A DNA stretch of 64,000 bases from an uncultured Anaerolineaceae bacterium. Its GTDB lineage: Bacteria > Chloroflexota > Anaerolineae > Anaerolineales > E44-bin32. Both the position numbers and the translations under genes were made by a program. Below, piece by piece: positions 41,283-51,707 of this stretch (the first letter of the stretch is position 1; every line of letters starts with the position of its first letter). The notes beneath the pieces are model-generated. The model worked only from the letters and a program-made list of their open reading frames with translations, did not search any database and had not been told where the DNA came from. The DNA is taken from contig CAZGRL010000003.1 of the NCBI GenBank assembly GCA_964528155.1, forward strand, positions 37,036-101,035, given 5' to 3'.

Positions 41283-41831
41283 ATGTCGAAGATCCCCGAC
41301 AAGCGACCTGAGAGCCTGGGCGGGTACGTCATCCACGGTGTGCCGTTTCCGACAGATACAGATCCCGATGCGCTGGCATTCTTGAAAAGGCTCGCCCCGA
41401 TCCAGATCGAGCAGAAGTACCAGATCACTTATCTGCACTCTTACGGACAGGACAGCCCGTGGTTCGCCGCAGCGACCAATCGAAAACTCCTTGCCACGCA
41501 CGACGCCGACAGTGGATACACTTATGCCACGCCTCGCGGGCATGACATGTACAGCGGCAAGGAAACGGATTGGATTGACATCAGTGACCGGCCGGCCAAA
41601 ATCCATGCCTTCACCGTGTGTCATTTTGGCTCTGAGGAATTCCTACCGGAGACACCCTTCGTGTTGGCGCTGATCGAATTCGAGGACGTCAACACGCTCT
41701 TCCTGACACGCCTCCTGGGGGTAGACCCCGATCAAGCAACGTTGGACTGGATCGGGATGTCTGTTGAGCCCCGCTTTCTTCGCAACAGCAAACTCAAACC
41801 GACGGACGTCTATTTCGTCCCGGCCGGCTGA
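41283..41831 (+). CDS. DUF35 OB-fold protein (thiolase partner)
   Basis: 182 aa, 3 nt after the thiolase stop. PFVLALIEFEDV...RLLGVDP OB-fold core. The usual Cys4 zinc ribbon is not evident. Confidence 0.75.
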   Translation: MSKIPDKRPESLGGYVIHGVPFPTDTDPDALAFLKRLAPIQIEQKYQITYLHSYGQDSPWFAAATNRKLLATHDADSGYTYATPRGHDMYSGKETDWIDISDRPAKIHAFTVCHFGSEEFLPETPFVLALIEFEDVNTLFLTRLLGVDPDQATLDWIGMSVEPRFLRNSKLKPTDVYFVPAG

Positions 41832-41849
41832 CACGGGGAGCGGGTTCGA

Positions 41850-42578
41850 TTGCCTTCGACACTGCCTCGCGATCATCCGAACCTGGTTGCGGCTGCCTCG
41901 CGATTGAGGCGCAACTTGTGGATCTGGGCGGGGCTGTTCCTGGCGATGGCCGTCCTGATTTACACCGCGCTCGGTTCCGCGCACATCCTCCGGGCGGCAC
42001 CATGGATCATCGGCGCGCTGCTCTTCATTTTCGGCCGCCAGCCTGCCTTCCTCGCTCTCGCCAGCATCTTCTGGGGACTTGAGCTGATACACCTGGTGCC
42101 GGGAGCCGAGGCCGCGCTCGGACCCAATCCCCTCTCGGCCTCACTTGGATCGAGCCCCCTCGAGATACTGGGCTACGCAGTTCTCGAAGCGGTCATGCTG
42201 ATCACCGCCTGGAATCAGTTCATGTTCTACCGGATGCTGTACGGGACCCAGGGCTTCACCGGCCTCGATTCTGAAGCTCCTTTGATCCCCGAAGTCGTCC
42301 CTAATCAGACCTCGCGCCTGGCGTGGACTGCCCTCATCCTGGCCCTCGGGAGCGTGATTGTCACTGCTGCCGCAATCCCCCTCGCCCGCCAGGCGAGATC
42401 AGTGTTTGCGGTCGACACAGCTCTGGGCCTGTCCGAGCTCGCCATGGGGCTTGGTCTGGGCGTGGCCTTCTCCCCGACGACCCGGCGCAGGTTAGCACTG
42501 GCAGGCACGCTCATCGGCGCTGTGGGTTTCGCCTTGAGCCTGGCCATTAACCAGGCGCTGGGTGGAAGCGGGGCCTGA
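41850..42578 (+). CDS. Polytopic membrane protein, unknown function
   Basis: 242 aa with about 6 hydrophobic helices. Same reading frame as the next two ORFs. Confidence 0.55.
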   Translation: MPSTLPRDHPNLVAAASRLRRNLWIWAGLFLAMAVLIYTALGSAHILRAAPWIIGALLFIFGRQPAFLALASIFWGLELIHLVPGAEAALGPNPLSASLGSSPLEILGYAVLEAVMLITAWNQFMFYRMLYGTQGFTGLDSEAPLIPEVVPNQTSRLAWTALILALGSVIVTAAAIPLARQARSVFAVDTALGLSELAMGLGLGVAFSPTTRRRLALAGTLIGAVGFALSLAINQALGGSGA

Positions 42579-48261: not shown

Positions 48262-49413
48262 ATGGACTTCGAACTGAATGACGAGCAACGCATGTGGCGC
48301 CAAGCCGTCCACGACTTCTGCGCCAAAGAAGTCGCGCCATTGGCTGCCCAAATGGACTCTTCCGGTGAGCTTGACCCAGGTCTTCTGGAGAAACTGGCGC
48401 CCCTCGGATTGCTTGGGCTCAATGTGCCGGAGGCGTACGGCGGCGCCGGTGTGGACGCCATCAGCACCGCAATTGCCATCGAGGAGCTCGGGTGGGCCTC
48501 GGGCAGCCTGGCCCTCTCCGTATCCGCTCACAACGGCCTTGCCTCTGCGCCGATTGCCCTCTTCGGAAGCGAGGAGCAGAAGCAGCGTTGGCTGCCGATC
48601 CTGACTGGAGGCGAACACGGGCTGGGGTCGCTGGCCCTCACTGAGCCGGGGGGTGGGTCGGATCTGGTCGGGGCCGTGCAGACGCGCGCCGAGCTCGACG
48701 GTAATCAGTGGAGGATCAACGGGAGCAAGGCCTGGATCACCAACGCCAGCCTGGCGCCGCTGATCGTCACCTTGTGCCGGACGGACGCCGGCGGCGGATC
48801 GCGGTCGCTCAGCTTGATCGTCGTCCCAACGGACACGCCCGGCCTTGCCATACATCCGGCCGAGAAGAAGATGGGTGTACGCGGCTCACCGTCGCACGCG
48901 TTGAGCTTCGAAGATGTGCAGGTCCCGAAGGATCACATCCTGGGTGAGCCGGGAAGAGGTCTGTATCAGACCCTCGAAGTCCTCGACGGGGGGCGAATCG
49001 GAATCGGCGCGTTGTCCGTCGGCCTGGGTCGCGCCGCGCTGGAAGTGGCCTCCACCTATGCTCGTGAGCGTGAGGCATTCGGGCAAGCGCTGGCCATCCA
49101 TGCCACTATTCAGACGATGATCGCCGACGCCGCGACCCAGATCGATGCCTCGCGGCTGATGATCTACCGGGCAGCGTGGCTGAAGGACGCCGGTCTTCCG
49201 TATACGCGTGAGGCGGCCATGGGGAAGCTGATGGCGACGGAGGCTGCAGAGCGGGTTTGCCGGGATGCGATCCAGATCCTCGGCGCCTATGGCTACAGCA
49301 GTGAGTACCCGGTCGAGCGCTTCTATCGCGATGCGCGCGCCATGACGATCGGCGAGGGGACGAGCGAAGTGCAACGGATGGTCATCGCCAGGAGAGTGCT
49401 GGGGCTGTCGTGA
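48262..49413 (+). CDS. Acyl-CoA dehydrogenase
   Basis: 383 aa. LTEPGGGSD, YRDARAMTIGEGTSEVQ. Confidence 0.9.
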   Translation: MDFELNDEQRMWRQAVHDFCAKEVAPLAAQMDSSGELDPGLLEKLAPLGLLGLNVPEAYGGAGVDAISTAIAIEELGWASGSLALSVSAHNGLASAPIALFGSEEQKQRWLPILTGGEHGLGSLALTEPGGGSDLVGAVQTRAELDGNQWRINGSKAWITNASLAPLIVTLCRTDAGGGSRSLSLIVVPTDTPGLAIHPAEKKMGVRGSPSHALSFEDVQVPKDHILGEPGRGLYQTLEVLDGGRIGIGALSVGLGRAALEVASTYAREREAFGQALAIHATIQTMIADAATQIDASRLMIYRAAWLKDAGLPYTREAAMGKLMATEAAERVCRDAIQILGAYGYSSEYPVERFYRDARAMTIGEGTSEVQRMVIARRVLGLS

Positions 49414-49429
49414 ACACGCGAACCCGGCT

Positions 49430-49999
49430 TTATCCGCCTACAGCTTGAAGGGCTTCCTGCAAATCCGATTCCTGGACGAACCCAATCCATTGGCGCAGGA
49501 CCGTGCCTTCTCCATCGAGCAAGAAGATGTGAGGCTGATACTGATATCCGAGGGCTCGCTTGAAGGGCGCCGTCTGCGGATCATCGATGTCCAGGTAGAC
49601 AAAGCCGATCTTGCTCCCCCACTGCTGCTCCAGCCCGTGCACGACGGGCGCCATAGCCTGGCAGGTCGGTCACCAGAACGCGAAGAACTCGACCAGTTGC
49701 GGCTTGCCGGAGGCGAGTACGACGCTCCCCGGATCCGTGGCATGCAGCCCCTTGCGGACAGTCGGAGTCGGCTCCGGCGGGGCCAGACTCGCCTCGGAAG
49801 GGGTCACAATCGGACTTGGGGCAGCCTCGGTCGGGGGGACCAGAGGCAAAGGCGTGGCCGTGTCCGGAGGCGGTTGCTGAACCTGGGTGCTCGGCGGCGG
49901 GCTCGCCAAGCCAGGCGAGCAACCGATGAGCACCAGCGCAGCCAGGACCATGAGACCCGAACGGGTCCAGGTAGGATGAGGCCAGAGGTGTCGTGTCAT
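49430..49999 (-). CDS. Thioredoxin-like lipoprotein; candidate selenoprotein with in-frame UGA at 49670-49672 in W-U-P-T-C
   Basis: Track ORFs 49670-49999 and 49430-49654 share a frame. The readthrough is LVEFFAFW-TGA-PTCQAMAPVVHGLEQQW...IFLLDGEGTV. Signal peptide with lipobox LIGC, then a Pro/Thr linker. Confidence 0.7.
49630..49661 (-). promoter_or_regulatory. Candidate bacterial SECIS hairpin
   Basis: mRNA CCAGGCUAUGGCGCCCGUCGUGCACGGGCUGG. Stem GCCCGU/ACGGGC with apical loop CGUGC starting 21 nt after the UGA. CCAG/CUGG forms a lower stem. Confidence 0.5.
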
Positions 50000-50174
50000 T
50001 CAAGCTTGCCCTCGATACAGAACCCTCTCCCCAAGGACGGCCCTGCGCTGAAGTTTCCAACATGACGAGCCTACCAACCAGGGATTACCGAAAGATTACG
50101 GTTGACGCAGCCCTGGGTGGGATGAGAAGATACGCCTCGCCTATAATCAGGGCTGTGCCGATCCAGAGGTCCGA

Positions 50175-51707
50175 ATGACACGCAAGCTTGTGGAATGCGT
50201 ACCCAACTTCTCCGAAGGTCGACGCGTCGAGGTGGTCGATGCACTGGCTGGAGTCGTGGGGAGGACCCCGGGCGTCTACCTGCTCGATCGGCATTCCGAC
50301 GCCGACCACAACCGATCGGTCCTCACCTTCGCCGGCGAGCCACAGGCAGTCAGCGATGCGGCCTTCAAGGCAATCGCCCTGGCGGCGCAGAAGATCGACC
50401 TGGACAAGCATACGGGGGAACATCCCCGCATCGGCGCAACCGACGTGGTCCCCTTCGTCCCGCTCGGCGATACCACAATGGACGAATGCGTCGAATTGGC
50501 GCGCCGACTTGGGCGGCGCGTCGGTGACGAACTGGGAATCCCGGTTTATCTGTATGAGGCCGCCGCCACTCGCCCGGATCGGGTGAATCTGGCAGACATT
50601 CGCCGGGGGGAGTACGAAGCGCTGAAGCAATCGATCGCCTCCGATCCGGATCGCCGACCCGACTTCGGCCCGGCCAGGATCGGCCCGGCAGGCGCCACAG
50701 TGATCGGCGCCAGGCAGTTCCTGATCGCTTTCAACGTTTACCTGGCGACGGATGACGTGTCGATCGCCAAGGCGATCGCCAAGGCTGTCCGTACATCGTC
50801 GGGCGGTCTGCCATCCGTCAAGGCGCTCGGTTTGCTGGTCGAGGGGCTGGCACAGGTCTCGATGAATCTCACCGACTTCACGCAGACCTCTGTGCCACGT
50901 GTGGTCGAAGCCATACGACAAGAGGCCGTCCGGCGAGGCACGTCGATCCATCACTCCGAACTCGTCGGTCTGATCCCTCAGGCAGCCATCGTCGAAACAG
51001 CCCGCTGGTACTTGCAGCTCGATCGGTTCGCTTCCGAGCAGGTGCTCGAGACAAAGTTGTACGACGCGCTGGCGACACAAGCCGAAGACGAGAAGTCGTT
51101 CCTGGAGCAACTGGCGGAGGGAACACCGACTCCCGGCGGCGGATCCGCCGCGGCCCAGGCTGGGACAATGGCTGCAGCTCTCGTCTCCATGGTGGCTCGC
51201 CTGACCGTGGGGAAGAAGAAATATGCCGAGGTTGAAAGCCGTGTGCAGCAGATCATCGAACAATCCGAGGCCATGCGGAGTGAGCTATCGGAGGCCGTGG
51301 CGGCGGACGCGCACGCGTTCGACGGCGTGATGCAGGCCATGCGCATGCCGCACGATTCGCCCGAGGAAGAGGCGGCCAGGGCTGAAGCCATGGAGCGGGC
51401 GATGCACCAGGCGGCCGCCGTACCGTTGGAAGTCGCCCGACGGGCGAGGAAGCTCATCGACCTCGCCGCGGAATTGGCCGAGATTGGAAACGTCAATGCC
51501 ATTACCGACGCCGCTTCCGGCGCGGCGATGGCGCGGGCCGCCCTGCGTGCGGCAAGCCTCAATGTCAAGATCAACGCTTCTGGGATTTCCGATCAGGTAG
51601 CCGCCCGCACGTGGCTCAGCCAACTGACGGAGTTGGAGCATCAGGCTTTCGCCGCCGAAGCCCGCCTCCACGAGGCGCTACGCCAGAGGGCCAATCTCGA
51701 GCTGTAA
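50175..51707 (+). CDS. ftcD: Fused glutamate formimidoyltransferase / formimino-THF cyclodeaminase
   Basis: 510 aa. N-terminal LVECVPNFSEGRR. The C-terminal helical cyclodeaminase domain has GTPTPGGGSAAAQAG. Confidence 0.85.
   Translation: MTRKLVECVPNFSEGRRVEVVDALAGVVGRTPGVYLLDRHSDADHNRSVLTFAGEPQAVSDAAFKAIALAAQKIDLDKHTGEHPRIGATDVVPFVPLGDTTMDECVELARRLGRRVGDELGIPVYLYEAAATRPDRVNLADIRRGEYEALKQSIASDPDRRPDFGPARIGPAGATVIGARQFLIAFNVYLATDDVSIAKAIAKAVRTSSGGLPSVKALGLLVEGLAQVSMNLTDFTQTSVPRVVEAIRQEAVRRGTSIHHSELVGLIPQAAIVETARWYLQLDRFASEQVLETKLYDALATQAEDEKSFLEQLAEGTPTPGGGSAAAQAGTMAAALVSMVARLTVGKKKYAEVESRVQQIIEQSEAMRSELSEAVAADAHAFDGVMQAMRMPHDSPEEEAARAEAMERAMHQAAAVPLEVARRARKLIDLAAELAEIGNVNAITDAASGAAMARAALRAASLNVKINASGISDQVAARTWLSQLTELEHQAFAAEARLHEALRQRANLEL

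Follow-up and report, generated by a model that had tools for sequence, protein, structure and literature searches.

A putative selenolipoprotein of the thioredoxin family with an in-frame UGA and a minimal SECIS-like hairpin, conserved across Anaerolineales

The stretch of DNA considered here (the window) is 64,000 nucleotides (nt) long and belongs to contig CAZGRL010000003.1 of an uncultured Anaerolineaceae bacterium (assembly GCA_964528155.1). We propose that positions 49999 to 49430 of its minus strand form a single gene, which very probably encodes an exported, lipid-anchored oxidoreductase of the thioredoxin fold whose active site is Sec110-Pro-Thr-Cys113 (Sec, selenocysteine) and whose in-frame UGA codon is decoded by means of a selenocysteine insertion sequence (SECIS). 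The assignment of the UGA to Sec is strongly supported by the comparison of homologues and, judged from the sequences, this is a genuine lineage-wide selenoprotein gene.

The complete gene (49430..49999, minus strand) has 189 codons, from ATG 49999-49997 to TAA 49432-49430, and its frame holds a single internal stop, TGA 49672-49670, which is the proposed Sec codon for residue 110. Starting with ATG 49999, the frame runs through ...GKPQLVEFFAFW, TGA 49672-49670 and PTCQAMAPVVHGLEQQWG... to TAA 49432-49430; once translated, its layout is MTRHLWPHPTWTRSGLMVLAALVLIGC...GKPQLVEFFAFW-[TGA 49672-49670]-PTCQAMAPVVHGLEQQWGSKIGFVYLDIDDPQ...QPHIFLLDGEGTVLRQW...GG-TAA 49432-49430. The two open reading frames (ORFs) listed at this place, 49670-49999 (109 amino acids) and 49430-49654 (74 amino acids), share one frame and are parted only by the TGA, as an earlier note on this DNA, made from the letters alone, had stated and as the frame translation bears out. 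Gene callers split the selenolipoprotein gene in every assembly that we have seen, into products of 109 and 74, 108 and 78, or 106 and 71 amino acids; the last two pairs are found in copies from other assemblies (L083:10001-10579 and L085:10001-10564, respectively). Another such fragment, P0113, is the N-terminal half (110 amino acids) of the gene at locus L056. In the JGI annotation an N-terminal fragment bears the name "PBP1b-binding outer membrane lipoprotein LpoB", which is a misannotation.

A first line of evidence comes from the relatives of the gene. We used 80 loci taken from one genome per species (GTDB representatives), nearly all of them titled as metagenome-assembled genomes (MAGs) of Anaerolineales, Anaerolineae or Chloroflexota, which makes 81 loci with that of the window. 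The codon at the first Cys position of the CxxC motif is TGA in 66 of the 81 loci and TGC or TGT in 13; the other two are redox-dead D/N...S variants, and TAA or TAG is never found. In a protein search, which returned many diverged relatives, the called ORFs all end directly after ...LVEFFAFW, or after FFAYW or FFRFT, and the full-length relatives show FFA(N/F)W-C-P-T-C at the position where the called ORFs of the others end. The earlier note had proposed to look at where Cys-containing orthologues place their cysteine and at whether the two halves are normally separate genes: the TGA falls on the first Cys of W-C-x-x-C, and in the Cys forms the halves are never separate. Its opinion that neither half is a plausible protein alone holds as well, the thioredoxin fold requiring both. 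Downstream of the hairpin described below, the entropy at codon positions 1, 2 and 3 is 0.79, 0.61 and 1.53, respectively (codons +13 to +71 of 53 collinear Sec forms), which shows that what lies past the TGA is under purifying selection as a translated protein.

The second line of evidence is a hairpin of 17 nt just past the UGA (49633..49649, minus strand), made of a 5' arm GCCCGU (49649-49644), a loop CGUGC (49643-49639) and a 3' arm ACGGGC (49638-49633). Its stem of six base pairs (bp) and its loop of 5 nt lie within codons Ala117-Leu123. The spacer between the UGA and the first base of the stem is 20 nt, so that the hairpin starts at the 21st nucleotide past the UGA, where the earlier note had placed it, and the loop begins 26 nt after the UGA. 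This 20-nt spacer is found in every sequence except that of L036, which has a one-codon insertion. We aligned 55 distinct sequences of Sec forms over the stretch that runs from the TGA to position +63. Folding of this alignment with RNAalifold, without any hint, yields exactly one helix, which pairs columns 24-29 with columns 35-40 around a 5-nt loop; 98.8% of the cells of this helix are paired, and slid registers all collapse, with 2-49% of paired cells.

The helix is maintained by compensating changes, with double changes in three of the six stem pairs. At pair 28-36, 28 sequences have A-U, 27 have G-C and none is unpaired: the Ile codon AUC always occurs together with the His codon CAU, and the Val codon GUC with the His codon CAC. 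Pair 24-40 is G-C in 48 sequences and A-U in three, and pair 27-37 is U-A in one case (L073), where CCU occurs with AGG at the cost of a Gly-to-Arg substitution. A neighbour-joining tree from which the hairpin codons were left out shows at least seven changes between the G-C and A-U states, and the covariation is therefore not one inherited event. The third positions are constrained too: their mean entropy is 0.46 in the hairpin codons against 1.53 downstream, and the wobble base of the hairpin Gly codon is invariant (entropy 0.00) and that of the Pro codon has an entropy of 0.23, when the remaining Pro and Gly codons of the gene reach 1.4-1.9. The loop reads N-G-U-N-C; the G and the U which the earlier note had seen in the apical loop are invariant across the Sec-form alignment, at loop positions 2 and 3. 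The consensus of bacterial SECIS elements has a G at position 1 or 2 of the apical loop (PMC13582414), which the invariant G at position 2 fits. The CCAG/CUGG lower stem that had also been described does not stand, its middle pair (13-42) being unpaired in 36 of the 55 sequences. As far as an alignment can tell, this hairpin is a very clean minimal SECIS, defined by its 17 nt, its fixed spacer and its invariant loop G-U.

The family has changed between Sec and Cys about nine times, according to the tree. The main clade of Cys forms (APVLKNLE) has no hairpin, and forms that have been converted recently keep a fossil one: this is so for L004, which has TGC, for L075 and for the Asp form L039. 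The near-identical orthologues L004 (L004:2286-2813, TGC) and L005 (L005:1460-1996, TGA) have an identical hairpin, which suggests that the switch between Sec and Cys took place very recently, the putative SECIS being still intact. Redox-dead members of the family (L039:2506-3324, L067:1573-2517, L082:1999-3321, and the proteins P0085, P0091 and P0004) have W-D-G-T-S, W-D-P-V-S, W-N-G-P-S, W-S-N-T-S or D-N-P-T-S at the active site; the fossil hairpin of L039 is perfect despite the dead active site, and P0004 has W-W-P-T-C, TGG being one step from TGA. Tandem duplicates also occur: L030:2557-3783 contains two successive Sec forms, and in L067:1573-3330 a Sec form comes after an Asp form.

The product is built as a lipoprotein. 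A signal peptide (49919..49999, minus strand) ends with the lipobox L24-I-G-C27 (49930-49919), whose Cys27 is predicted to be lipidated and to start the mature protein, and the N-terminal stretch ...LAALVLIGC27 meets the lipobox pattern [LVI][ASTVI][GAS]C. A motif of this type follows a hydrophobic segment in 69 of 83 N-termini of the family; the rest have a variant lipobox, a transmembrane or signal anchor, or a cut contig. In the L066 orthologue (L066:1414-1938), a twin-arginine-like motif, SRRTFLR, precedes the lipobox, which suggests export of that protein by the twin-arginine (Tat) rather than the general secretory pathway. A low-complexity linker rich in Pro, Thr, Ala and Ser (residues 28-81; 49757..49918, minus strand) joins the lipid anchor to the catalytic domain. 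In the Sec forms, 48-143 residues separate the lipobox Cys and the active site, and the linker varies in both length and sequence among homologues.

The domain that follows (residues 82-189; 49433..49756, minus strand) contains W109-U110-P-T-C113, a buried Glu (E104) and a candidate cis-Pro (P156, in Q-P-H). If the TGA is translated as Cys, the product has a match to Pfam Thioredoxin PF00085 (E=4e-11; 43.2 bits for a gathering threshold of 23.5) over residues 93-185, hence across the TGA, and solved thioredoxins align with it end to end, with WCPTC over WCGPC and Q-P-H over the I-P-T cis-Pro loop. The structure was considered through the AlphaFold model of a Cys homologue, P0002, which is 55% identical to the protein of the window. 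This model has an N-terminal helix at residues 10-22, a linker of lower confidence without regular secondary structure, and a beta-alpha-beta-alpha-beta-beta-alpha domain (pLDDT, the predicted confidence, 96-98) with the CxxC at the start of helix 1. Its best Foldseek matches are classical thioredoxins (TM-score 0.75-0.86, normalised to the target; root-mean-square deviation 1.3-2 angstroms), and its nearest structures are not of the CcmG/ResA/TlpA type. The complete thioredoxin fold with a stop at the first Cys of WCxxC, as well as the signal peptide, the lipobox LIGC and the Pro/Thr-rich linker, had been recognised in the earlier note; all are present, and the lipoprotein architecture is conserved in the family, on which ground the Sec centre is placed outside the cytoplasm. 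A flexible tether is thus predicted to hold the Sec or Cys centre outside the cytoplasmic membrane.

Four other explanations of the internal TGA have to be weighed. If it is a real stop, the locus produces a truncated lipoprotein of 109 amino acids, and possibly a 74-amino-acid product from ATG 49654, or else it is a decaying pseudogene. Every gene caller annotates the locus in this way, but the TGA and the frame beyond it are conserved in 66 of the 81 loci, with codon periodicity past the stop, the column shows TGA and never TAA or TAG, and the internal Met is not conserved, being Leu or Ile in many orthologues; neither half could fold, when the thioredoxin fold needs both. We give this explanation hardly any credit. 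Even less can be said for a sequencing or assembly error at 49670-49672, which the earlier note had listed among the things that would undo its proposal, or for a genome-wide reassignment of UGA: the probability of either is practically nil. In favour of an error there is only the general expectation that a stop within a frame is frequently one, and against it the identical gene with the identical TGA is present on two independent JGI metagenome contigs, which excludes such an error for this codon, as does its conservation among the loci. As for reassignment, TGA works as a genuine stop in the window, where it ends the genes for the acyl-CoA dehydrogenase, the ABC-2 permease, the ABC ATPase and GH113; four of the eight confident neighbouring genes end with it. 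The UGA event is therefore a site-specific recoding, as had been argued before from the neighbouring stops.

It may also be that the UGA and its hairpin are decoded in a SelB-dependent manner but with a tRNA-Cys that resembles tRNA-Sec (tRNAReC), so that the residue inserted is Cys; in that case an unusual route would lead to an ordinary thioredoxin with a CxxC motif. Such tRNAs, and SelB-dependent insertion of Cys at UGA, are described in the part of PMC13582414 that cites Vargas-Rodriguez et al. 2018. However, the nine or so Sec/Cys switches of the family are the usual pattern of true Sec/Cys families. In addition, tRNAReC has been reported in other lineages and alongside canonical tRNA-Sec, which also counts against this possibility, and we consider it very unlikely. 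We are still more doubtful about a SelB-independent read-through of the UGA by a near-cognate Trp or Cys tRNA, stimulated by the hairpin, which would give a WxxC or CxxC protein in low yield. Downstream structures can stimulate read-through, and the relative P0004 indeed has TGG in this column, but a Trp at the position of the first Cys would abolish catalysis, and SelB is present in the order Anaerolineales (PMC4959059). A loop G-U that never varies and a spacer fixed at 20 nt point to recognition by a specific protein and not to a generic roadblock.

Several observations nevertheless weigh against the selenoprotein that we propose. The search for tRNA-Sec with ARAGORN in the window and 55 related loci returned only one tRNA-Lys, and the search with phmmer for matches to E. 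coli SelA, SelB and SelD among all the ORFs of the window and the 81 loci returned none; no selA, selB, selD or tRNA-Sec gene is thus found within the window or about 0.5 Mb of related loci. With its 6 bp, the hairpin is short; it has no conserved lower stem, and no Rfam match is found at the gathering threshold over the whole window or at E<=10 over 49560-49720. The hairpin does lie within the minimum free energy fold, as expected from the earlier note, but the fold of this single sequence is no better than those of shuffled sequences (z=+0.79), and the significance of the hairpin comes from the comparison alone. The neighbouring genes of the window (acyl-CoA synthetase, acyl-CoA dehydrogenase, formiminotransferase-cyclodeaminase, PGA_cap, ABC transporter) provide no functional link. 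Last, we infer the presence of SelB and tRNA-Sec, and the insertion of Sec, from sequence, and the function and redox partners are proposed from fold, topology and analogy only.

Regarding the genes of the selenocysteine machinery, they usually lie elsewhere than next to selenoprotein genes, so that we take their absence from the window and the related loci as uninformative rather than negative. SelB is encoded by several single-cell genomes of Anaerolineales and by Anaerolinea thermophila UNI-1, which has SelB but no annotated Sec-containing dehydrogenase (PMC4959059), and the genome of the sediment Chloroflexi RBG-2 encodes Sec-type formate dehydrogenases (PMC3971608). These published records support the existence of a Sec machinery in the genome of the window at the level of the lineage only. 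The U form of the gene is present in a MAG that is labelled A. thermophila (L056); when an orthologue in the cultured strain UNI-1 was sought with the L056 protein, only copies from MAGs and metagenomes were found.

We propose the following scheme for the gene of the window. During translation, UGA 49672-49670 would not be read as a stop: the 17-nt hairpin located 20 nt downstream, with its loop C-G-U-G-C, would act as a bacterial SECIS and recruit the complex of SelB, GTP and Sec-tRNA(Sec) to the ribosome, and selenocysteine would be inserted. The pre-protein of 189 residues would then be exported, modified with diacylglyceryl and cleaved at Cys27 by Lgt and Lsp, and a Pro/Thr-rich tether of about 55 residues would keep the mature protein at the outer side of the cytoplasmic membrane. 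There, the Sec/Cys pair would cycle between selenol/thiol and selenosulfide, and reduce or isomerise the disulfides (or the sulfenic or otherwise oxidised cysteines) of extracytoplasmic proteins. We infer that Cys27 is lipidated, and likewise in which direction the redox reaction runs, where its electrons come from and what its substrates are; by analogy with the tethered thioredoxins that monoderm bacteria have, such as Etrx1, Etrx2 and ResA, the most likely role is that of a reductase or isomerase of extracytoplasmic disulfides that is fed by a carrier of the CcdA/DsbD type.

In the window, the gene stands alone, divergent from the formiminotransferase-cyclodeaminase gene and convergent with the acyl-CoA dehydrogenase gene, an arrangement common to its closest relatives. 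The selenoprotein gene and the acyl-CoA dehydrogenase gene end 16 bp apart (49411-49432). Neither a site resembling an intrinsic terminator in 49250-50250 nor a sigma-70-like promoter around the gene was found. In about 26 of the 81 loci the surroundings are different: one flank has, on the opposite strand, lgt and a gene of the AhpC/TSA-Redoxin type (ResA-like), and the other has, on the same strand, csoR (90 amino acids), copZ (68 amino acids, a CxxC HMA domain) and a gene for a P-type ATPase of the copA type. Examples of this synteny, outside the clade of the window, are L077:1269-4819 and L068:2770-6309. The selenoprotein gene immediately precedes csoR-copZ-copA in about one third of the related genomes, and its divergent neighbours are lgt and the AhpC/TSA-Redoxin gene in some 20 related loci. 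This arrangement is a weak lead, and no more than that, towards envelope thiol and copper homeostasis.

A bolder idea, which we regard as rather improbable, is that this family is the main selenoprotein of many Anaerolineales, perhaps in some species the only one, and that it is a surface selenolipoprotein tied to copper stress. If the former were true, it would explain why UNI-1 has kept SelB without an annotated Sec dehydrogenase; if the latter were true, the protein might, as a selenol reductase or isomerase, repair envelope cysteines mis-oxidised under copper catalysis, or it might handle Cu(I).

The same signature was also looked for elsewhere. When both strands of the whole window were scanned for open frames that contain an in-frame TGA and, after it, a GC-rich stem of 6 bp with an NGUNC loop, the site at 49670 was returned and no second one; scanning all the loci for other W/F/Y-U-x-x-C contexts returned nothing credible. 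Further candidates for read-through of an in-frame TGA in the window turned out to be only adjacent genes in the same frame, such as 41283-41831 and 41850-42578. In this region (41283-42578, plus strand), an ORF of 182 amino acids that follows a thiolase-like gene stops at TGA 41829-41831, and the ORF 41850-42578, in the same frame, encodes a hydrophobic protein without a Pfam match; these look like two adjacent genes and not like a case of read-through.

The practical consequence of these observations is for annotation, the gene being systematically misannotated as two hypothetical ORFs across MAGs of Anaerolineales. They also add a lineage-wide selenoprotein to bacteria that are abundant in sediments, sludge and the subsurface and are poorly cultured, and the 17-nt SECIS could serve to find further selenoproteins of Chloroflexota. 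A selenol redox centre held outside the cytoplasm by a lipid tether would be uncommon, and raises the questions of why Sec is preferred there and of what supplies the electrons.

Bacterial selenoproteins with a UxxC motif and a thioredoxin fold have been catalogued since 2006: thioredoxin (Trx), a thiol:disulfide interchange protein, and DsbA-like, DsbG-like and Prx-like proteins (Zhang, Gladyshev; PMC1794560). Like these families, that of the window has Sec in place of the N-terminal, nucleophilic Cys of CxxC, a thioredoxin fold, Cys orthologues, a putative SECIS hairpin within the coding region just past the UGA, and repeated interconversion between Sec and Cys. The difference lies in the hosts and in the architecture: the catalogued families are mainly from Deltaproteobacteria, Clostridia and Spirochaetes, whereas the family described here consists of lipoproteins with a long tether, spread throughout Anaerolineales. 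Only three selenoproteins are listed for Chloroflexi in PMC1794560.

The closest concept is found in the same phylum. The NCBIfam model NF041057, "Rcas_1661 family thioredoxin-like (seleno)lipoprotein" (Roseiflexus, Chloroflexota), also combines a lipoprotein signal, a thioredoxin-like domain and a redox motif with Sec or Cys; the existence of this curated model makes the finding less novel than the earlier note implied. The protein of the window scores 16.8 bits against NF041057 (cut-off 190), over profile positions 2-106 of 247 only, and for 10 family members tested this model is not listed at E<=0.001; no model of NCBIfam 20.0 reaches its cut-off for these members or for the protein of the window. 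This indicates a separate family, which is not rescued by the present annotation rules and is for that reason split everywhere. Judged against NCBIfam, it is probably a new family, although its kind is well known.

Among the other NCBIfam models, the score is 33 bits for DsbE (cut-off 123), 17 for ResA (170) and 16 for TlpA (230), and StoA is also far below its cut-off. Identity with cytoplasmic TrxA was considered and rejected on the score of 48.6 bits against the equivalog model TIGR01068 (cut-off 96.8) and on the signal peptide and lipobox. Thioredoxin-family proteins that are tethered outside the cytoplasm include the lipoproteins Etrx1 and Etrx2 of Streptococcus pneumoniae, ResA and StoA of Bacillus, TlpA of rhizobia and CcmG/DsbE of E. 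coli, whose motif is CPTC. The protein of the window resembles them in having a thioredoxin-fold domain tethered to the membrane and facing outwards, with Pro-Thr between the two redox residues as in CcmG, and differs from them in its domain, which has the thioredoxin fold in a minimal and classical form, and in the Sec expected in place of Cys.

Regarding the hairpin, the minimal SelB-binding element of E. coli fdhF is about 17 nt long, its spacer is 11 nt, and its loop G-U is recognised by SelB. The hairpin of the window is like the SECIS elements of E. coli fdhF and Moorella fdhA, being a short apical stem-loop with a loop G-U, located in the coding region at a fixed distance past the UGA, but unlike the E. 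coli element it has a spacer of 20 nt instead of 11, no bulged U and no conserved lower stem.

Extracytoplasmic selenoproteins with signal or lipoprotein peptides have already been described in the SAO system, which comprises SaoB, SaoC and the lipoprotein SaoX (Haft and Gwadz, bioRxiv 10.1101/2022.07.06.499078). As in the case of the window, Sec is outside the cytoplasm and the genes are typically annotated as truncated ORFs; on the other hand, the SAO proteins are from Firmicutes, have unrelated folds, with CU dipeptides in components of ABC transport, and are encoded in a nine-gene operon. The earlier note was right that an exported Sec centre is uncommon, but it overstated how unusual this is, precedents being NF041057 and SAO; apart from this point and the lower stem, its interpretation is supported. 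No concept is changed, UxxC selenoproteins of the thioredoxin fold and selenolipoproteins of Chloroflexi being known already; the value of the family described here lies in annotation and in the selenium biology of Chloroflexota.

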